64,000 bases of DNA, taken from NCBI GenBank assembly GCA_021810905.1, contig JAJZQH010000003.1:1897-65896 (forward strand), written 5' to 3'. The position numbers and the translations under genes are program-made. The notes beneath the pieces are model-generated. The model had not been told where the DNA came from, ran no database searches, and worked only from the letters and a program-made list of their open reading frames with translations. Shown one piece after another: positions 19,175 to 56,002 of this stretch (position 1 is its first letter; each line of letters opens with the position of its first letter). This DNA comes from a bacterium (GTDB lineage: Bacteria; UBA10199; 2-02-FULL-44-16; JAAZCA01).

Positions 19175-21808
19175 CTACAGCAACTCTCTCAACACGGAAG
19201 CATATGGACCTTTCGCTATCTTTTCGAGGGCCGAATGCGAGAGCCGCCGGATCCTTTCTTTGCTCAAGCCGAGCATGCCTCCCACTTCCTCATGCGTATG
19301 ACCTGCGAGGTGGCATTGGAGCACTATGATTTTTTCCCTGTCGCTCAATCCCGATCCCTCAATCGCCATGTCGAGTTTCGTGATGGCATCGCTTCGAAGC
19401 GCGAGATGATCCGGCCCGACCTCTCCCAAATCGGTCACCCGGCCTTCCAACGTGAAATCACCATCTTCTTCGTCCAGCGGCGCAGAGAAGGAGACTTCCC
19501 GCCTTGCTGCCGCTCCCCGCTGTATCATCATTTTAAAGAGCGTCAACGAGAGCGAACGCTTGACATAGGTCTCAAAACTCGCGATCGAGGGATCATAGCG
19601 TTGCGCCAGCTTGTGGAGCTCAATCCTTCCTGCCTGGAGAAGCGCCCCAAAGCTCATGTTCGCCCCGCCAAACCTTGTCATCACGGAAGAAGCAATGCCC
19701 GCCATCAACGGCTCATAAAAAAAGATCAGGTGATCGAGTGCCTGCCGGTCGCCGGACTTGGCCATCCAGAGGAGAAGCATCTTCTCACGCTGATCCAGAA
19801 ATATTCCGCCGCCGCTCCTTCGCTTTGTCGTTATCGTCGAATAGACGTCCATCCCATAGTGCGAAAACGCCCAATCGATCATCCGCCCTTCACTTTCTGA
19901 ACCGCGCCACAGATTGCGGAGATAACCATAGAGGCCCATCAATCCCGAGTTCCTCTCTCCAACATGCGAGCGAAAATCTCCCTGCACGATGCCAGCTGCA
20001 TCCTTTGCGCCCGCTTCGCACATCATTCCAGCGAGATAAAAAGCAATGACCGAATCAGGCACGCGGCGCCAGCCCGAGAGCTTCCCGCCTCTCCGCTCAG
20101 CCAGACGAAGCTGCAGCGCAAATGGCATTTCTTCGGCTGCGGATACACCACAATAATCCAGGATTTTATCGACTACCACTCTCGAATCGTCAGGTGTCTT
20201 CCTCAGACTAAAATGCGTGTAGAGACCTTTCAGCGATTGACCGATCTCCGGGACGACCGTACTCTCCATCTCGCGACAGGAAACAAACCTAACGTGAGGC
20301 AGGCCATTGAGTTCCTGCACCCTCTCCATAAGGCGCAGAATCGTCGCGAGGGGAACCTTCTCCCACGGCCAATTCCTGTTATATCGCAAACAGAGGCACT
20401 GTTGTTCGTAGGAAAGATCTTCAAACCTCTCAACTCCGAGTTGATCGAGCATGAAATCCAGCGCAGAACCTCCGTAGCCTTCCGGAACCCTGAGCCAATA
20501 ATGTTCAAGCAAGCCTGAGAGCGTCGCGCCGAGCTCATCGAGCACGATCTCATTCAGTTTCTTACCTGGCATCGCCCTCAGATGCGGACATTTCAAACCG
20601 TTCTGCTCGGGTAAGAGTCCTCTGGCTATCTCCAGCAGTTTCACCTGCGTGGAAGCAGGCATTCTTTCCCATTTTATGAGTTCGCACTCTAGAAGACCCT
20701 TCAGCTGCACATCCCAGGGAAGGATCTCAAATGACGGAACGCCCACATCATCAAGCAGTGCATCGATTATTCTGCGGGCCTCTTTTCCCCGGTTGAGATA
20801 ATTATTATACAGTCCAATCAGTGTAGAACTGAGTTCTGGCATTTCGATGTCCCTGAAGTGGTCGAAAGTCAAAAACCTCGGATGCACAACGCCAGCCTCA
20901 TTCGCCAAGCGAAAAAGCAGATGTCGCTTAAGCTCCACGCTAATTTTATCCCAGTGGATACGCTGATAACGCAGCCCGATGAATCTCGCCTGTTCCGCCA
21001 GAGACAATTCCTCAAACCTCTGCACTCCTAAATGATCGAGCATGAAATCCACGATCCCGCCTGCACCGTGTTCGTCCGTCCACATCCGAGAATAATGTTT
21101 GTAAAGCCCTTGGCACTGCGCTTTCCATCCCGGCAACCTCATTTTGAAATGATCGAATCCCAGCAGGCGAGGATGTGGCAGGTTTTGAACCAGCGCCATC
21201 TGCTCGAGTATTCTGACCTGTGCACTGAGAGAGAGATGAGAGACATTCTTAAAGGGAGCGGAATCAACCCGCAACCGGTCGATCTCTGCCTGAATGCGCA
21301 ACTCCTCCATGGGATGATACGTGTATCGAAAGGAGCCGAGTCCGCGGGTCCCGAATTTCAGGCAGATATCAGCTATGGAGACGCTTGCCCCCTCGATCAG
21401 CGCGAGCGCCGATGCGACGAGCATCTTTGCGGGTTCGAAAGAGAGTATTCCCAGGATATGGGCGTCATGCGCGATAATGATCGCGTGAGAGGGAGAGTCA
21501 AAGCCGTGGAGTTTGAGCGCATCGCGCGTCATCGGGCTGCTCTCGTCGACAAAACGCATTGCTTGCCGATCGAGCGCCCTCCGGATCTCGGCCGGCGTCT
21601 GCCGGTGTGATCCATCTCGCTCCCCGTATTCATCCGCGGACGACGGCGTTGCAGAGTGCTCTTCGGTGTCAACGCCGCAGGATTCAAGCTCCTGGGATTC
21701 GGCGCAGGGCGGTATCTCGTCGAGGGCAGCTGTCTCTTCAGCAAGGACTAAGCTCCCCAACAGCTCCAGCTGCGAAGCGAGGTCTCCTGTAGATTGCAGC
21801 GCGGCCAT
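19175..21808 (-). CDS. Sigma-70-family protein with large N-terminal tandem-repeat domain
   Basis: The C-terminal part has sigma-70 region 2 (LIFFYEPLMAGIASSV...LLQAGRIELHKLAQRYDPSIASFETYVKRSLSLTLF) and region 4 HTH (LSDREKIIVLQCHLAGHTHEEVGGMLGLSKERIRRLSHSALEKI). The N-terminal ~600 aa hold 5 tandem repeats (recurring GLYxxY/FxxR ... D/FMLDxLGVxxFEELS ... LRYxR). An AAGGGGAGG RBS precedes the start. Confidence 0.7.
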   Translation of the reverse strand: MAALQSTGDLASQLELLGSLVLAEETAALDEIPPCAESQELESCGVDTEEHSATPSSADEYGERDGSHRQTPAEIRRALDRQAMRFVDESSPMTRDALKLHGFDSPSHAIIIAHDAHILGILSFEPAKMLVASALALIEGASVSIADICLKFGTRGLGSFRYTYHPMEELRIQAEIDRLRVDSAPFKNVSHLSLSAQVRILEQMALVQNLPHPRLLGFDHFKMRLPGWKAQCQGLYKHYSRMWTDEHGAGGIVDFMLDHLGVQRFEELSLAEQARFIGLRYQRIHWDKISVELKRHLLFRLANEAGVVHPRFLTFDHFRDIEMPELSSTLIGLYNNYLNRGKEARRIIDALLDDVGVPSFEILPWDVQLKGLLECELIKWERMPASTQVKLLEIARGLLPEQNGLKCPHLRAMPGKKLNEIVLDELGATLSGLLEHYWLRVPEGYGGSALDFMLDQLGVERFEDLSYEQQCLCLRYNRNWPWEKVPLATILRLMERVQELNGLPHVRFVSCREMESTVVPEIGQSLKGLYTHFSLRKTPDDSRVVVDKILDYCGVSAAEEMPFALQLRLAERRGGKLSGWRRVPDSVIAFYLAGMMCEAGAKDAAGIVQGDFRSHVGERNSGLMGLYGYLRNLWRGSESEGRMIDWAFSHYGMDVYSTITTKRRSGGGIFLDQREKMLLLWMAKSGDRQALDHLIFFYEPLMAGIASSVMTRFGGANMSFGALLQAGRIELHKLAQRYDPSIASFETYVKRSLSLTLFKMMIQRGAAARREVSFSAPLDEEDGDFTLEGRVTDLGEVGPDHLALRSDAITKLDMAIEGSGLSDREKIIVLQCHLAGHTHEEVGGMLGLSKERIRRLSHSALEKIAKGPYASVLRELL

Positions 21809-21876
21809 GCCTCCCCTTATACGACGCCGCGGAGATATTCAACTACCCATTAAAAATTTCCCGTGCGACCGGTAGG

Positions 21877-21894
21877 AATTTTTCACGGATTATC
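21877..21894 (-). promoter_or_regulatory. Conserved 18-nt AT-rich motif (copy 2) upstream of sigma-like gene
   Basis: Exact repeat of AATTTTTCACGGATTATC, 69-86 nt upstream of the 21808 start. It overlaps the stop of the upstream gene. Confidence 0.35.
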
Positions 21895-23021
21895 GGAGCG
21901 CCGTCGTCGGAAATCCTCGAGAAATTCCGCTAGAGGCATTTTGAATTCGCCTGATCCGCCGTTCGCCATCGAGTTCCGCCACATCAATCCAGCAAGGCGC
22001 TGCTGAACGCCCTCGTCCTCTATGACGAGCGCTTCCAGGAGCAGGTTGCGACCGCCTTGCGCGCAGTTCGAGAGAATGAATAAGAGCGGGGCATCATTGC
22101 GCATTTCAAGACGTTCCCGCATCTTTCGCAGATTTGCGAGCAGCGAATTGAAAACCTTCACCGCATTCTTGTTGCCGATGAAGACAATATCGCGGTTCAT
22201 CAAACCGCCCAATCCAGGGGTTTCGCCGGTTTTCAGCCAAAGCTCAAGAGAGCAGCGAAAGCCGTGCTCCCCATAGACCGTCGCAAATCCGGGTCGCAGC
22301 TCAAAGCCCGCGTACCTCATCATCTCGAAGAGCGCTACGTGGAACCCTGGTCTCCACGTATCGTCATCAAAGACGATGAGCATGGAACCGCCTTCCGAGA
22401 TCCGCCTTTCGCATCCGCACAGGAGCTCATGCATCCTGGTGAGGTACATACGATCGAATGTGTGCAGGGGATCCATCTCCCAGTCCATCGCCTCAGGGTG
22501 TACCCACGTCACCAGATCAAAGGTCTCAAGAGAGTCGCCATCATCCGCAAGGCCCTCAATAAATCCGGATTGCACCATCCCACATCCGTCTCCGGCACGG
22601 ACCTGATGAATCTTTCCCTCAGGATCGTCCCCAAGAGCGCACTGAAACTCTTTGAGATTGATCCTGGCGCCCTCCAATTTCCAACTCAAGACATCAAATC
22701 CGATAGTCTTCACGAGACCCGGAAGCGCCAGTCTCATCCCCAAATTCTCGTACCATTTCCCCGCGCCGACCGAAAGTACGGTGCGCGCCTCACACTTCTT
22801 TCCGACTTCCTGATAGAGGAGTATTTGCGCGGTATCGTAATACAATCTTGGGACGAGTTCGTCGGCGCCTCCGCCATTATAGAAATGTTGATAGAGCCTC
22901 AGCAGATCATACCGCTGCGCAGCGACAAGCTGTTCGACCGAGAAGTGATCTCTGCTTGCAGACAGTGCCCGCGGCACTGAGTCCCTCAACTCGATATTTT
23001 TTTGAATCCATTGCGGGAGTT
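21883..23021 (-). CDS. Class I SAM-dependent methyltransferase-like protein (5' end uncertain; ORF runs through a MITE copy up to 23403)
   Basis: Glycine-rich motif I VLSVGAGKW and a methyltransferase-fold-like core. Residues about 90-130 of the predicted ORF are encoded by the repeat element at 23022..23151. Confidence 0.5.
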
Positions 23022-23151
23022 CAATGAGATGGTTCCCCGCAGCTTGCTGCGGGGTTTCCGCCACCATCTCCCTTGAGGGGAGAGGGAAGGGTGAGGGTGA
23101 TCGTCGATGTTGCCGGTGATACCCCGCGGCTTGCCGCGGGGAGCATTCATT
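23022..23151 (-). mobile_element. MITE/REP-like palindromic element, copy A (reverse orientation)
   Basis: Reverse complement of the ~125-150-bp element found at 46752, 52424 and 55828. Shares the terminal hairpins (CCCCGCGGCAAGCCGCGGGG, CCCCGCAGCAAGCTGCGGGG), the central hairpin (CCCTCTCCCCTCAAGGGAGAGGG) and the imperfect TIRs (TAATGAATG...CTCATTGA) with the other three copies. Confidence 0.7.
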
Positions 23152-23472
23152 TTCCGGAGCCGACTGTTCGCGATCGCGCGTGACTGGCAGTCGCGGAGTA
23201 ACCGGCCCAGGCGCGCCACGATATTGATCGCCAACCGCCACATATTCCGACGCCACGTCATTCAGGCATATACCCTGACGGGAATCGGGCAGCGGTATAA
23301 TATCATCGTCGCAGACCACGAACACTTCCTCTGCACCGGATTCCTCTGCAGGCAGCCCGTCTGCCGCGGCCATTACATCGAGATTTAACGGTTTTACGGT
23401 CATATATCTCCTGCCCTGACGACATGGACGTTATCGCAGAATTCCTGAAAAAGTTGCTCGATATTCGCACCC

Positions 23473-23630
23473 AAATCCGACACTTGAATTATCACTCAAA
23501 TCCTCCCTCCCTTGATGGGAGGGAGTTTGAGGGAGGGTGACCATGAAGACTTTCGTCACCCAAGGAATGAGTACCACCCTCTCCCTAACCCTCTCCCATC
23601 AAGGGAGAGGGAATTTTTTGTGTCGGATTT
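23473..23630. mobile_element. Second TIR-bounded palindromic element (single copy in window)
   Basis: 11-bp perfect terminal inverted repeats AAATCCGACAC / GTGTCGGATTT. Internal hairpins CCTCCCTCCCTTGATGGGAGGGAG and CCCTCTCCCATCAAGGGAGAGGG; the latter is nearly identical to the central hairpin of the 4-copy element. Confidence 0.55.
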
Positions 23631-23695: not shown

Positions 23696-25210
23696 ATGAG
23701 CACTACATTCACTCCAGGTATCGGCGGTTTTCCCGGCGTGATTTCGCCGCAGGAAGGCGTGGATAGCGTCATCCTAACCTCTACGGGCGATTATGACTTC
23801 GCCTGCGAACGCCCGGCGGAGGATGCTGCCGGCGGAAATCTCGGACTCATCGCCATCGACCACGCGCTCGAAGATGCCGGATTTGATCCGGAAAAGATCA
23901 GCACCATCTATCGCGGGAAAAAACGCAGGCCTCATCTCGATACTGAACGTACGCGGATCGTGGAAGGAATGCGCGCATTGGGCGCCGGAGAAAAAGGCGC
24001 GGTCATAGGCATCTCCACCACGACCGACGAATATTTCAGATTTGCCCCGCTCGCAAAACTCCTCAGAATGGCGTTTCCGGACGCCACCCTCATCGCGGGC
24101 GGGGCGCACTTCGTGCGCGAGCGCATCGGCGGATTCGCGGACCCGGTAGAGACTGCGCTCATGATGGGGCTGGTTGACGCCGTTGTGGTGGGACACGCGC
24201 AGCCGTTCGTAGACCTGGTCGTCAAGCACGGAGGCAGAATCGAAGAGGTCGATGCGCCTGGCTTCTATCGGCTCGATCCTGTTTCAAAGCGCGTCACGGG
24301 TCGCGGCAAGGGGAAATTTCCCGACCTGAACAAACTCACTCTTCTCTACGATCCGGTGTCGATGGGCATCCGCACGATGCTCGCCGACGGCTGCAGAAAC
24401 GGCTGCAATTTCTGCACGGTGGCGGGCAGGCCGGTCGCGCTCTTCGATCCCGAGATCGTCGTCAGGGACTTAAGCGCCGCACTACTTGAGCATCAGGACT
24501 TTCGCATCTCGCTCTATGATTCCAATCCGCTCGAACCCGCGCTTCGGAATTTCTATCGCAGCGTCTTTCTGGCGCTTGATGAAACAAACCAGTCCCGAAA
24601 ATTCGCCTATATCGATCCTGCCACGCTGGCCCACGATTTTCTGGAATCTCTGAACACCATATCGTTCGGCACGATCTGGTCCTTCAACGCGGGCCGCGAC
24701 GCGGTAACCGAGAAGCAGGCACGCGCGATCGGCACGAGGTATAAAGGAAAATATAAGGACCAGCGGATGCTCGACGCGGAGAAGAAGGCGCTGATCGAAT
24801 TCATCGATGCCATGAAGATGCTGAAAAAGCTCTATCCCGAAGAGCCGCCGTTCGGCCTGATGCTCTCCTATATCGTGACGCCGTTTGAAACCAGGCAGTC
24901 GGCGATGGCGATGTACGAAGAGATGCGCGAGTTCCTGGCGCTGGCCGACAAATCGATCGTGTTCCGCTTCGCCGTGCATGCCCTCAGGCCCTATCCGGGA
25001 ACGACCCTCAGAAATAAATATTCGAGTGTCATCGACATGGAAGAATTCAATTTCCGCCTCGACCTGGGCGACAGGATCTCGCCGTGGAAGAAGGGCGCGG
25101 CCCCAGCCCTCGCCTTTCATCGTGCAGTGACGATGATTCCCCCGGTCAACGATCAGACAGACTACCTCAAGGCCTTCAAGCGCGCCATTAACACTCATCT
25201 TCCCCGGTGA
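23696..25210 (+). CDS. B12-binding-domain radical SAM protein (paralog 1)
   Basis: CX3CX2C motif DGCRNGCNFC with an N-terminal B12-binding-like domain (GISTTTDEY...IAGGAHFVRERIGGFADPVE). About 45-50% identical to 31766..33244. Confidence 0.8.
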   Translation: MSTTFTPGIGGFPGVISPQEGVDSVILTSTGDYDFACERPAEDAAGGNLGLIAIDHALEDAGFDPEKISTIYRGKKRRPHLDTERTRIVEGMRALGAGEKGAVIGISTTTDEYFRFAPLAKLLRMAFPDATLIAGGAHFVRERIGGFADPVETALMMGLVDAVVVGHAQPFVDLVVKHGGRIEEVDAPGFYRLDPVSKRVTGRGKGKFPDLNKLTLLYDPVSMGIRTMLADGCRNGCNFCTVAGRPVALFDPEIVVRDLSAALLEHQDFRISLYDSNPLEPALRNFYRSVFLALDETNQSRKFAYIDPATLAHDFLESLNTISFGTIWSFNAGRDAVTEKQARAIGTRYKGKYKDQRMLDAEKKALIEFIDAMKMLKKLYPEEPPFGLMLSYIVTPFETRQSAMAMYEEMREFLALADKSIVFRFAVHALRPYPGTTLRNKYSSVIDMEEFNFRLDLGDRISPWKKGAAPALAFHRAVTMIPPVNDQTDYLKAFKRAINTHLPR

Positions 25211-31765: not shown

Positions 31766-33244
31766 TCATCGCGGCAGGTAGCGGAGGATCGCGTCCTCAA
31801 AGTGCGGCAGATAGTCGTCGAGCCTCATCGGCGCGTCGCGATGTGTGACCTCGCGCATGAACCTGAGCGAAGGGCAGGCGTCTCTCTTCCAGGGCGAGAT
31901 GCCGACGCCATCGTCGCGGTCAAAGTCAAAATCCTCCAAGTCGATCGCGTCCGCGAGCCGCGCGCGCAGCGCCGTTCCCGGATAGGGCATGAGCGCCTGC
32001 ACCGAGAGGCCCACCTCCATTTCCGGCGTCGAGAGATCGAGAAACTCCCGCATATCGTCCAGCATCGCCAACGCGGAATCGCGCGTCATAAAGGGCGTTG
32101 TGATATAGGAGAGCGTGAGTTTCCGGGGGACGGCGGCGCTCGCCTTCCGTCGGCGCAGAAGCATGGCTCCGATGAAATTGCGCAACGCGGTTTTCTCCTC
32201 GTCGAGCGTGTGCTGATCCTTGATCTTTCCAAGGTATTTCGTCCCGATCACCCGCGCGTCCTCTTCCAACACGGCGTCACGGCCGGCGTAGAAATACCAG
32301 CAGCCGTACCTCTCAGCTCTCTCGACGACGCGATAAAAATTCTTCAGGAGCGCCGACGGATCGAGATAGACCGCCTTGAGCGAGCGATCCTCGCCTTCAA
32401 TCCTGTCGAAAATTTCGCGATAGAAGTCGTCGAGGTGCGGTAAGAACGGATTGGAATCCGTGAGAGAGAACGTGTGCACGCCCTCCCGGAGCATGGCCCC
32501 GAGCCCACACGCCACGATGTCAACCGTCAGATTCGGAGGCCGTCTCCCCGTGATGAAGCAGAAGTCGCACCCGTTACGGCACTGATCTGCAAGCATCGTG
32601 ATCACCTCTCCTTCGCCCGCGTCACCGCTGGAGGGGAGCCTCCCGACGCGAGGATAGAACCCTGTGCCGCGGCCCACGACCTTGTGATATACAGGATCGA
32701 GCTGATAAAAGCCGGGTGTCGTGACATCCTCTCTCCTGCCCCGGTGCTTGACGACGAGATCCACGAATCCCTGTGCATGTCCGCACACTGCCGCATCGGC
32801 CAACCCCATGCCGAGCGCCGCCTCGACCGGATCCGCGAATCCGGCGATCCGTTCGCGCACGACGTGCGCTCCGCCGAGGACGATCTGGACGCCGGGAAAG
32901 GCCCGCCTGAGCAGCGGCGAAAGCACGGCAAGGACGTGGTAACGGCTCGATGTCGTGGAGATGCCCATGACCGCGCCCGACTCCGCGGCGCCCGCGCTCC
33001 GGAACGCATCGACGACGGCGCTGCTGCCGCCGGAGAGGTCATAGGGCCGGGATGCGTGGGGCTTCAGGATCACGGCGTCTTTGAACCCCTCAGTGATCAG
33101 GGCCTCTTTTATGGTTTCGAGCCCGAGGTGTTCGGAGGCGGCATCCGCGGGCCTCGCAGGGTCCAGCTCAAAATCGCCGGTCGAGGCGAGGATCACCGAA
33201 CTCACATCCGGCTGCGGCATGATGATGGCAGGGGCCATGGGCAT
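31766..33244 (-). CDS. B12-binding-domain radical SAM protein (paralog 2)
   Basis: CX3CX2C motif DQCRNGCDFC with the same N-terminal domain as paralog 1 (GGAHVVRERIAGFADPVEAALGMGLADAAVCGHAQGFVDLVVKH). Confidence 0.8.
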   Translation of the reverse strand: MPMAPAIIMPQPDVSSVILASTGDFELDPARPADAASEHLGLETIKEALITEGFKDAVILKPHASRPYDLSGGSSAVVDAFRSAGAAESGAVMGISTTSSRYHVLAVLSPLLRRAFPGVQIVLGGAHVVRERIAGFADPVEAALGMGLADAAVCGHAQGFVDLVVKHRGRREDVTTPGFYQLDPVYHKVVGRGTGFYPRVGRLPSSGDAGEGEVITMLADQCRNGCDFCFITGRRPPNLTVDIVACGLGAMLREGVHTFSLTDSNPFLPHLDDFYREIFDRIEGEDRSLKAVYLDPSALLKNFYRVVERAERYGCWYFYAGRDAVLEEDARVIGTKYLGKIKDQHTLDEEKTALRNFIGAMLLRRRKASAAVPRKLTLSYITTPFMTRDSALAMLDDMREFLDLSTPEMEVGLSVQALMPYPGTALRARLADAIDLEDFDFDRDDGVGISPWKRDACPSLRFMREVTHRDAPMRLDDYLPHFEDAILRYLPR

Positions 33245-46591: not shown

Positions 46592-46751
46592 CTAACGCTC
46601 CTTTCCTCACATTGAAAGTGCTCGTGATTGACGACGAGGATGACCTGCAGGACTGCGCCACGACCTGGACAATATAGATCAAATCGTTACGAACGCCTTG
46701 TTCGGAAATCGTTAGAAAATTGTTAATGCGTGAACTTGTAGCTCATCAAGA

Positions 46752-46901
46752 CAATGAATGCTCCCCGCGGCAAGCCGCGGGGTATCACCGGCAACATCTC
46801 CGATCACCCTCACCCCTGCCTACCGGCAGGCAGGCTTCCCTCTCCCCTCAAGGGAGAGTGGCGGAACCCCCGCAACAAGCTGCGGGGAATCATCTCATTG
46901 A
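46752..46901 (+). mobile_element. MITE/REP-like palindromic element, copy B (with 22-bp internal insertion CTGCCTACCGGCAGGCAGGCTT)
   Basis: Same termini and hairpins as the other three copies. Sits between the phoA stop and the porin promoter. Confidence 0.7.
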
Positions 46902-52274: not shown

Positions 52275-52423
52275 ACACTTTCGTCAGACGGCGAAGCCGG
52301 AAAACACTCATAATATCAGGATTGGACGGGAGCGATCCGGGGTCTGCGGTCTCCATATCAGGTGAATATTTTCGCTGGCTTTCGATACGAGAGATAGAAT
52401 ATAGACCTGCTTTCAAATGCCGC

Positions 52424-52545
52424 TAATGAATGCTCCCCGCGGCAAGCTGCGGGGTATCATCGGCAACATCTCCGATCACCCTCACCCTTCCCTCTCCCCT
52501 CAAGGGAGAGGGTGGTGGAAACCCCGCAGCAAGCTGCGGGGAATT
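52424..52545 (+). mobile_element. MITE/REP-like palindromic element, copy C
   Basis: TAATGAATGCTCCCCGCGGCAAGCTGCGGGG ... CCCTCTCCCCTCAAGGGAGAGGG ... CCCCGCAGCAAGCTGCGGGGAATTATCTCATTGA. Confidence 0.7.
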
Positions 52546-52618
52546 ATCTCATTGATGCATCAACCGTTGATGCATTGAGGCATTTAACCACCAAGCTGCA
52601 GATAGATGGAGGTGTACT

Positions 52619-53983
52619 ATGAAAAGGGTCATATGCTTGCCGATAGTGCTTCTCGCCTTTGTCCTCGTTTCATGTGTCAGCACTTCAAGCGGCACCAGCA
52701 GCGACAGCGGCACCACCAGCGGAACCTCGTCCACGACGATTCCCGCCAAGGCAGCAGTACTGCACAGCACGCCTCCATTCGGCGGGATCATGGTGGCCGA
52801 CAGTGGAGAGGTGATCCTCCCATTGGTCAGCTCCGACGGCAAGACGATCACCGGCGCCATCTGGAACAGCGAGACCGGCGGCACAGTCACGGTCTATCTC
52901 GATCCTTTGACCCACCTGCCCACCAAGACCATCCTTGGAGATTTCATCTTCCTCTTCTCCAACTGGAACGCGAACGCAGGAACCGTGGACATCGCTGAGA
53001 TCTACGGGCCAGGCAACTTCGTACAGTTGTTCAGGGGTGTGAGCGTCTCCTCGCTCGCGATCGCTAACGCCAATCTGAGTTCCAAAGACATGGCCTCCAA
53101 GTCGACGTGTTTCCCGGCCTGCGACTCCGACGCCAAGAATCTCGCGGAGCTCCTCAAGTTCGCGGGGCTGGGCATATCTGTCGGCGCATGCGGCGTGGCG
53201 ACGACCGTCTCGCTTGGAGCGATGGCGCTCCCGTGCGCCGGCGTTCTCGTGAGCACGGCCATCGCCGTTGTGGATACTGATACGTGGCTGCAGAATCTCG
53301 ACGATGCGGAGAGCATTCTTTCGGTGATCGACGCAGCGCAGTGCGCAACGCTCGATGTGGAGAGCTGCATCAGCACGATCCTCGGAGGTCTGAGCGCCCT
53401 CTTCGACAACGCGAGCAAGGTCGAGACCGCATATGCAGATTTTGAAACGAACGCAGATGCGGCGCTGGCAGATCCTGCCCAGCCGAGCGGCGTCATGCCC
53501 GGAAGTGGAGCTTTGCCGATAGCGGCGACAGGCACCTATGAATGCGATCCGAACGGCTCCATGCTCTATGAACCCTGCCTCACGGGCGGGACGAAGACAT
53601 GCCAGGCCGACTTCACCTATTCCGAATGTCCGAATGCGCCTTCCAGCAGCAGCTCAGGCAGCACCGGAGGAAGTGGAGGTTCCGGCGGAAGCGGCGGCAG
53701 TGGTGGAAGCGGAGGCAGCGGTGGAGGCAGCGGCGGGGCGTGTTCCTACAGCTACGATATTCCCAGCATGAAGTGCCCTGGCGAAACCTGCGTTACGTTT
53801 GCGGCTTGTTGCTCCTCATGTTCCATCAGCTCCTGCGTATCTACTTCTGACGAGCACTGCAACGGGGCGTCCTATTATTACAAGGTGTCAGGCGACCCAA
53901 CGCATTACTCGACCAGCTCGGCGTGTCAGTTGGCAGCTAACTGTGTTTACCAGTGTTTTGGCCAGACGGCCACGTGCAACTGA
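52619..53983 (+). CDS. Secreted lipoprotein with Gly/Ser-rich linker and Cys-rich C-terminus (paralog B of 16386..17618)
   Basis: Lipobox LVSC. It carries the same 50-aa conserved block as paralog A. A (GGS)n linker precedes a Cys-rich C-terminal module. Confidence 0.75.
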   Translation: MKRVICLPIVLLAFVLVSCVSTSSGTSSDSGTTSGTSSTTIPAKAAVLHSTPPFGGIMVADSGEVILPLVSSDGKTITGAIWNSETGGTVTVYLDPLTHLPTKTILGDFIFLFSNWNANAGTVDIAEIYGPGNFVQLFRGVSVSSLAIANANLSSKDMASKSTCFPACDSDAKNLAELLKFAGLGISVGACGVATTVSLGAMALPCAGVLVSTAIAVVDTDTWLQNLDDAESILSVIDAAQCATLDVESCISTILGGLSALFDNASKVETAYADFETNADAALADPAQPSGVMPGSGALPIAATGTYECDPNGSMLYEPCLTGGTKTCQADFTYSECPNAPSSSSSGSTGGSGGSGGSGGSGGSGGSGGGSGGACSYSYDIPSMKCPGETCVTFAACCSSCSISSCVSTSDEHCNGASYYYKVSGDPTHYSTSSACQLAANCVYQCFGQTATCN

Positions 53984-55677: not shown

Positions 55678-55827
55678 TCAGATCACCTGTTCGAAAGCCC
55701 TCAGGAAGGCGTATAACGTCAACCCTTACCTCAGAGATAGCAATTTAATAATTTGAATATACACTGTTTTTTGAGATGCTCCAAGTCGCAAATGAATTGA
55801 TGGGCAGAAATAATGCTATCTGTGCGC

Positions 55828-55959
55828 TAATGAATGCTCCCCGCGGCAAGCCGCGGGGTATCACCGGCAACATCGACGATCACCCTCACCCTTCCCTCTC
55901 CCCTCAAGGGAGAGGGTGGCGGAAACCCCGCAGCAAGCTGCGGGGAATCATCTCATTGA
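55828..55959 (+). mobile_element. MITE/REP-like palindromic element, copy D
   Basis: Near-identical to copy C. Lies in the intergenic region downstream of the RND efflux operon. Confidence 0.7.
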
Positions 55960-56002
55960 TGGGCCATCTTGACACACGCGGCAGGATGTTTGCTCGAGAA
56001 GA

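Follow-up and report, generated by a model that had tools for sequence, protein, structure and literature searches.

The gene described here lies on the reverse strand of a 64,000-nucleotide (nt) stretch of bacterial DNA, hereafter the window (GenBank assembly GCA_021810905.1, contig JAJZQH010000003.1, positions 1,897 to 65,896). It occupies positions 19175..21808 (-), with its stop codon at 19175-19177, and encodes an 877-amino-acid (aa) protein of the sigma-70 family in which the sigma module is preceded by a long N-terminal arm of repeats. The open reading frame (ORF) starts with an ATG, and directly 5' of this codon, the sequence reads as a Shine-Dalgarno-like AAGGGGAGG (21810..21818 (-)). 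An identical 877-aa protein is encoded by two independent assemblies, NCBI GCA_027327785.1 (DAHVYM010000026.1) and one Logan contig, which rules out an assembly chimera. In addition, the N-termini of homologs align from aa 9-20 of the window protein onward. Together, the two assemblies, the Shine-Dalgarno-like sequence and the aligned N-termini show that the frame is neither a translation nor an assembly artifact; the original prediction, which was made from the letters of the window, had already called a translation artifact unlikely. Judged from its sequence, the gene is that of a genuine alternative sigma factor, predicted to bind core RNA polymerase and to initiate transcription at specific promoters. 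That a real sigma factor here carries a new repeat module is held with high confidence.

The sigma module spans the last ~206 residues (aa 672-877). Pfam Sigma70_r4 matches aa 820-864 above its gathering score (E 8.6e-13), and the superfamily-level NCBIfam model TIGR02937 matches aa 690-866 with 56.6 bits against a cutoff of 42.9. The Pfam match to region 2 is sub-threshold; in an alignment, aa ~680-777 are colinear with regions 1.2-2.4 of Mycobacterium tuberculosis SigA. The protein has both the sigma2 domain (regions 1.2-2.4) and the sigma4 domain with its region 4.2 helix-turn-helix that define the sigma-70 family. The predicted region 2 and region 4 are thus borne out by the Sigma70_r4 and TIGR02937 matches and by the colinearity with SigA. 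It can be divided into three segments: the sigma2 domain (aa 672-764, 19517..19795 (-)); an acidic linker, modeled with low confidence and aligned to the region-3.2 segment of relatives (aa 765-804, 19397..19516 (-)); and the sigma4 domain (aa 805-877, 19178..19396 (-)). The latter includes the 4.2 helix SKERIRRL, for which the family consensus is RERIRQ, and an RpoD-type C-terminal tail, GPYASVLRELL, which aligns to the SigA tail HPSRSQVLRDY.

A search of 5.8 billion proteins returned 11 homologs of the full protein with 34-52% identity; the architecture accounts for 12 clusters there. Most share the fusion, with a query coverage of 82-100%; a form with three repeats (P0012) covers 65%. For the members that retain region 3, which are longer by ~51 aa, the top-scoring models are RpoD_Cterm, RpoD and RpoS, and the matches take in regions 2, 3 and 4. 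These scores are far below the equivalog cutoffs: on RpoD_Cterm, where the cutoff is 354 bits, the best-scoring relative, P0008, reaches 124 bits and the window protein 21.6. From the model scores of the region-3 keepers, the tail and the 4.2 helix, the sigma module is best read as a descendant of the RpoD/RpoS-like branch that has diverged strongly, and not as a classical extracytoplasmic function (ECF) sigma factor.

The window protein has only sigma2 and sigma4, which is the ECF layout, yet it also has region 1.2 and the RpoD-type tail. This two-domain layout looks secondarily derived. A clean gap of 51 residues between aa 771 and 772 (about nt 19493-19495) marks where sigma3.0-3.1 would be, and the region-3.2-like acidic segment is kept. 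The same ~51 aa are missing from 7 of the 12 family members (columns ~825-875 of alignment A1), and these members are interspersed among the keepers on a neighbor-joining tree. Because of this scatter, the distance tree of 12 sequences implies about four independent losses of sigma3.0-3.1, and with them the origin of an ECF-like two-domain layout from an RpoD-like ancestor. Two tandem paralogs in one metagenome-assembled genome (MAG; GCA_020723205.1, labeled Bdellovibrio sp.) differ in this feature. They lie at 7293-10004 and 10001-12769 of locus L003 and overlap by 4 nt; one (P0007) is without region 3 and the other (P0002) retains it.

Compared with the group 1 and 2 factors (RpoD/SigA and RpoS), the family has collinear regions 1.2-2.4, a region 4.2 of the (R/K)ERIR(Q/R) type, a tail (GPYAxxLRELL) that aligns to that of SigA, and region-3 keepers whose top scores are on RpoD_Cterm and RpoS. 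The window protein, in contrast, has no region 1.1, no sigma3.0-3.1 and no aromatic pair in region 2.3, its region 1.2 follows an unrelated arm of ~670 aa, and its scores are far below the equivalog cutoffs. It could be argued that the protein is the housekeeping, or primary, sigma factor of its lineage, with a lineage-specific N-terminus in place of region 1.1 and the non-conserved region; the best scores of the keepers on RpoD/RpoS-type models fit this, as do the primary-sigma-like tail and 4.2 helix. Placement in group 1 fails, however, on the RpoD_Cterm score and on the absence of sigma3.0-3.1, and region 2.3 has no aromatic residue where M. tuberculosis SigA has its WW. As sigma3 also appears to have been lost repeatedly, tandem paralogs occur in one genome, and the family is extremely rare and patchy, a primary sigma factor is very improbable.

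The arm itself consists mainly of repeats. Four strong units of ~97 aa were delineated by self-similarity and profile: R1 (aa 189-290, 20939..21244 (-)), R2 (aa 291-384, 20657..20938 (-)), R3 (aa 385-486, 20351..20656 (-)) and R4 (aa 487-584, 20057..20350 (-)). They are followed by a degenerate R5 (aa 585-671, 19796..20056 (-)), in which the profile matches only aa 613-657. Pairwise Smith-Waterman z values among R1-R4 are 12.6-18.5 (against 200 shuffles), and the R1-R4 profile finds these repeats with independent E-values of 1e-30 to 5e-33. For R5, the z values are 5-6.5, against R1 and R2 only, and the independent E-value is 0.003. A profile built without R5 detects it at the same position in most homologs, and it is conserved across the family as a separate unit. 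The five repeats first noted are therefore there, but the fifth is degenerate, and by self-alignment and profile the array spans ~480 aa and not ~600.

The recurring motifs are essentially as first described, with GL(Y/L)xx(Y/F) at aa 234, 332, 432 and 528 and (V/I/L)DxxLDxxGV at aa 253, 348, 450 and 546. The full consensus of the repeat is xxTxxxLLExLxxxxxxPHxRxL...IPEIGxxLxGLYxxY...VDxMLDxLGVxxFExLPxxxQ...WxRVP, in which the H, R, Q and W are invariant. Many residues in each repeat are invariant among the 11 homologs, and the fusion is kept at 34-52% identity, which speaks for selection on the arm. Since each repeat position keeps its own conserved signature, the array is probably old and its units specialized. 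At the DNA level, a 43-nt stretch that encodes the DFMLDxLGVxRFE core is 86% identical between R3 and R1 (20418-20460 and 21009-21051, 591 nt apart). Alternate repeats may have undergone gene conversion, or purifying selection may have been strong here.

Structure prediction shows the unit to be compact and mostly helical. A long N-terminal helix is followed by a turn at PHxR, a small beta-hairpin at IPEIG and then three helices. In the full-length AlphaFold2 model, the predicted local distance difference test (pLDDT) score of the repeats is 85-94; R3 modeled alone gives a pLDDT of 94.2 and a predicted template modeling (pTM) score of 0.83. Pfam searches with each repeat, the N-terminus and the leader gave zero matches even at E<=10, a 38-sequence repeat profile found nothing significant among PDB sequences, and PHROGs and PADLOC returned sigma-type matches or nothing. 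Among solved chains (one per 40% identity cluster), there is no fold match to the repeats, and the full-length model finds only sigma and helix-turn-helix domains among solved structures, with no alpha-solenoid. Likewise, neither the unit nor the array has a profile or fold match to TPR, HEAT/ARM, PPR, TALE, mTERF, Sel1 or other helical repeat families. On the available evidence, the repeat is an undescribed domain with no solved structural neighbor, and the modeled fold is probably new.

N-terminal to the repeats are three further segments. The first is the acidic leader that had been predicted to precede the repeats (aa 1-75, 21584..21808 (-)). It has a net charge of -15 and an isoelectric point (pI) of 4.1, aa 27-69 are disordered in the AlphaFold prediction, and the segment is poorly conserved among homologs and missing from the short forms. 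This is followed by a conserved helical N-domain (aa 76-158, 21335..21583 (-)), which is restricted to the long forms (8 of 12). Pfam gives no match on aa 1-189 even at E<=10, and a profile of the N-domain matches no PDB sequence, so that by these searches there is neither a region 1.1 nor a known family for the N-domain. A sixth, cryptic repeat at aa 76-188 was considered and rejected (Smith-Waterman z about 0, hhalign probability 0.2%). The third segment is the N-motif, a helix motif that reads FRYTYHPxEExRIQAEIDRLRV (aa 159-188, 21245..21334 (-)), which occurs in nearly all sigma fusions, including a form with one repeat, and never in the helicase fusions described below.

The ~670-aa arm occupies the place of region 1.1 of the primary sigma factors. 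Region 1.1 is an acidic, single domain of about 90 aa. The two are alike in standing before region 1.2 and in the acidity of the window leader and of region 1.1, and unlike in that the window arm is about 670 aa with five repeat units.

R3 carries a signature of its own, C407-P-H409 ... Q470-C471-x-C473. It is invariant in all 12 aligned members, and most of the sigma fusions that are more distant retain it; a few have the CxC alone. At the corresponding positions, R1, R2 and R4 have mostly hydrophobic residues (L/V; A/L; F/G/L), and the protein has few cysteines elsewhere. An invariant cluster where the other repeats have such residues suggests a candidate buried Cys3His metal or redox center peculiar to R3. 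That R3 is a sensor site is, at present, rather doubtful.

When 1.84 billion cluster representatives were searched exhaustively by profile, the repeat was found in 54 proteins. Of the repeat-bearing proteins that were examined, sigma fusions account for about 21; all of these come from uncultured MAGs, and they have three to five repeats. A 402-aa relative from Saganbacteria (L013, 5980..7188 (+)) combines the N-motif and just one repeat with a complete sigma2-3-4. As this protein has only one repeat, it suggests that the array grew through duplication of one N-terminal module. Six more proteins are fusions in which the repeats are N-terminal to superfamily 1 (SF1) helicase cores of the Upf1/Dna2-like type (AAA_11/AAA_12), at least one of them from Saganbacteria. 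The Saganbacteria helicases (e.g. P0022, NQU17408.1) have four to five N-terminal modules of ~97 aa (profile E 2e-53 to 7e-21), but they differ from the sigma fusions in their AAA_11/AAA_12 effector and in having no N-motif, no PHxR and no R3 Cys signature.

The remaining repeat-bearing proteins are repeat-only or have partner domains of no assigned family. The core of the module, IPxIG-GLYxxY-DxMLDxLG, is also present in giant proteins of 2,000-6,500 aa, for which the named sources are Elusimicrobia and an unclassified bacterium. Several of these open with signal-peptide-like segments (e.g. P0034, from an unclassified MAG, P0037 and P0057), which means that the module also occurs outside the cytoplasmic proteins that handle DNA. 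No transmembrane segments were found in the sigma fusions. From its sequence distribution, the module is portable, being found with a sigma factor, with SF1 helicases, alone and in giant proteins. Such portability suits a general module for binding or scaffolding better than one that is strictly DNA-specific.

The MAGs that encode family members are labeled Margulisiibacteriota, WOR-1 or Saganbacteria, and also Bdellovibrio sp., Proteobacteria or simply bacterium. An ABC-F protein encoded in the window has best matches at 73-81% identity, and the next come from MAGs labeled Deltaproteobacteria at 55-60%. The family thus seems to be spread over two or more deep, uncultured lineages. That a large structured N-terminal extension is rare in sigma factors, as first stated, agrees with the 12 clusters among 5.8 billion proteins and with the about 21 fusions among 1.84 billion cluster representatives. 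In ECF sigma factors, extensions at the N-terminus are likewise described as rarer than those at the C-terminus, and as shorter in general (PMC7826278). Pfam, NCBIfam, PHROGs and PADLOC hold no entry that describes the family, and no description of it was found in the searchable literature on MzaA, Margulisbacteria sigma factors and N-terminal repeat extensions. In short, the known kind here is a sigma-70-family factor, and what is new is the domain family of its arm and, probably, its fold.

The main rival to a regulatory arm is an array that targets nucleic acid by binding a sequence or structure of DNA (or RNA), which in the sigma factor would provide extra upstream promoter contacts or tether the factor to a locus, and in the SF1 helicases would guide the enzyme to its substrates. 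Both identifiable partners, the sigma factor and the Upf1/Dna2-like helicases, act on nucleic acids, the number of repeats varies, most repeats are basic (pI 8-10) in the short, Margulisiibacteria-type forms, and the Arg and His of the PHxR motif are invariant. The repeats are, however, of mixed charge, no DNA-binding fold is found in them, and the module is present in giant proteins that are apparently secreted. Nucleic acid targeting is considered rather unlikely.

A second possibility is that the repeats associate like with like, so that sigma fusions, helicase fusions and repeat-only proteins are joined in one complex or at one cellular site. Such a scaffold would suit the many architectures that carry the module, the lineages, such as Saganbacteria, in which all three kinds of protein occur, and the two tandem sigma paralogs in one genome. 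The genes, on the other hand, are unlinked: the repeat-only P0016 and the helicase fusion P0022 lie amid housekeeping genes with no sigma gene nearby. A scaffold is accordingly thought improbable. Repeat-only proteins as adjacent partners of the sigma factor were also considered, and their gene contexts do not support this.

A further possibility is a sigma factor of anti-phage defense. MzaA, of the MZA anti-phage system, is likewise a sigma-70-family protein with a long N-terminal extension, its sigma domain being at the C-terminus (the sigma part of the model is ~474-714 of 726), and by analogy the arm studied here would sense infection. The sigma domains are detectably similar in the region-3-keeping relatives, which match the sigma part of MzaA models (70-89 bits with NCBIfam, 47.7 bits with PADLOC), and the helicase fusions have cores similar to Mokosh MkoA. 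These MzaA matches are limited to the sigma domain and far below the 800-bit cutoff, by about 10-fold, and the N-terminal regions are unmatched. Moreover, PADLOC identifies no defense protein in the window protein or any of its neighbors, Mza partner genes are absent, and the gene contexts are of a housekeeping type and unconserved. A role in defense is the least probable of the alternatives, and scarcely to be expected.

The explanation favored as a whole is that of an alternative sigma factor with a regulatory or partner-binding arm, to which a probability of roughly 0.45 is given. The arm would control when the sigma2/sigma4 module engages core RNA polymerase or promoters. It would thereby do in cis the job that a separate anti-sigma factor, or a regulatory extension, performs in other alternative sigma factors, and the R3 Cys-Pro-His ... 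Cys-x-Cys cluster could be a metal- or redox-sensing site within it. The position of the arm is suggestive, as region 1.1 of sigma70 gates DNA binding. In Pfam and NCBIfam searches and in the annotated context, there is no anti-sigma gene near the sigma gene and no anti-sigma domain; nor does the protein contain the HxxxCxxC or a Pfam domain of a fused anti-sigma domain of the ZAS or RskA type.

Precedent for such an arrangement comes from ECF41 (SnoaL), ECF42 (TPR), ECF57 (WD40) and ECF238 (CorE), in which fused extensions replace anti-sigma factors (PMC8999054), and from the N-terminal extensions of BldN and SigC. In these groups, the attached domain is a known or predicted regulator of activity (PMC8999054, PMC7826278). 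The window protein resembles them in having sigma2, a linker and sigma4, in the absence of an anti-sigma gene next to its own and in the extra domain that is covalently attached to it, and the conserved CxC in R3 recalls CorE. It differs in that its extension is N-terminal, far longer and built of a module that belongs to no known family or fold, and in that its sigma domain is probably not of ECF descent, given region 1.2, the RpoD-type tail and relatives with region 3. The region-1.1 position, the lack of a nearby anti-sigma together with the ECF precedent, the per-repeat conservation and the candidate site in R3 are the reasons for which a built-in cis-regulatory or partner-binding platform is preferred, although tentatively and at somewhat less than even odds.

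Several observations weigh against a regulatory arm. The co-occurrence of the module with SF1 helicases also fits nucleic acid targeting. The repeat number ranges from 1 to 5 across family members, and such variation is seen more typically with avidity-type or extended-ligand binding and less with a fixed autoinhibitory dock. The CxC lies in a predicted helix of the R3 model, which is less than ideal geometry for chelating one metal ion, and the full-length model has a pTM of only 0.52.

A broader proposal builds on the regulatory arm and combines a new fold and portable domain family with "one-component" sigma regulators. Here, the arm with its R3 Cys3His would sense a signal, or dock a target of the transcription or DNA machinery shared with SF1 helicases, and the repeated, precise loss of sigma3 would turn a three-domain RpoD-like factor into an ECF-like two-domain one. 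Taken together, these steps are possible but unlikely to hold in full.

Sigma factors rank with the best-studied regulators of bacteria, and only a few accessory domains are known in them. To these, the family adds a large N-terminal arm built of an undescribed module with no solved structural neighbor, and the same module is shared between a transcription initiation factor and SF1 helicases. The apparent natural series of sigma3 losses bears on the origin of two-domain, ECF-like factors from three-domain ones. If the arm senses or targets, it would give poorly known, uncultured phyla a new route for wiring signals straight into promoter selection, and it could also become a compact orthogonal part for synthetic biology. 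The uncultured hosts limit immediate testability.

The genes around the sigma gene had been taken as a dedicated regulon. Upstream and co-oriented is a 506-aa ORF (21883..23403 (-)). Downstream, and also co-oriented, are a 454-aa protein with a weak ATP-grasp (glutathione-synthase-like) match, a 410-aa Cys-rich lipoprotein (16386..17618 (-)) and an FKBP. A terminator-like hairpin at 15874-15902 closes this run of five co-oriented genes; a scan for sigma-70-type promoters and terminators gave nothing above shuffled expectation. The six annotated homolog contexts are completely different from one another and of a housekeeping type, and within 6-10 kb of other family members, no homolog of a window neighbor was found in these contexts or by tblastn of all five neighbors against 14 loci. 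As the neighborhoods are not conserved, a dedicated regulon is unsupported. The upstream ORF had been called methyltransferase-like, for which there is no Pfam, NCBIfam, PADLOC or PDB sequence match.

The 18-nt motif promoters that had been mentioned were not recovered, as a repeat search of the whole window shows no recurrent promoter-like motif of 18 nt, although the motif originally intended may have been missed. The short elements that do recur are palindromic hairpins of a dispersed element that resembles repetitive extragenic palindromes (REP) or miniature inverted-repeat transposable elements (MITE). It is ~131-137 nt long and present in four copies (23021-23151, 46750-46901, 52421-52557 and 55825-55961). 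The element has two hairpins, CCCCGCxGCAAGCxGCGGGG and CCCTCTCCCCTCAAGGGAGAGGG, and related palindromes are at 23498-23539 and 23575-23616. Three copies lie between ORFs and the fourth is inside the 5' part of the 506-aa ORF (aa ~85-128). Because of this copy, the start of the ORF is doubtful: it has probably been mis-called, or else the element is translated in frame.

Upstream of the sigma genes themselves, (C/A)TGAAATT is found at -33 to -36 from the start codon in four Margulisiibacteria-type loci (L005, L011, L012 and L013). In the window, GGAAATTTTT is at -52 of the sigma gene (21852-21861 (-)). The TGAAATT element occurs in 5 of 9 loci with P~2.5e-6 against the locus-wide background, a value to be read with the pattern having been chosen post hoc and intergenic DNA being AT-rich. 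Other copies of this type in the window do not mark the starts of co-oriented genes. TGAAATT may be a shared promoter element and is kept as a lead only.

Finally, two of the neighboring genes have relatives elsewhere in the window. The Cys-rich lipoprotein gene has a diverged paralog on the opposite strand (ORF 52619..53983 (+); 16862-17300 against 52916-53333), with a complementarity of 78% over 237 nt and 70% over 138 nt. Divergent from the sigma cluster is a 504-aa gene (23696..25210 (+)) with a weak match to a B12-binding domain. Several stretches of 30-80 nt in it are 71-81% identical to ORF 31766..33244 (-) (24507-25008 against 31968-32469), and a clearer B12-binding/radical-SAM protein is encoded at 5879..7294 (-). 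Together, the three genes have the look of a small paralogous family on either side of the kdp operon.

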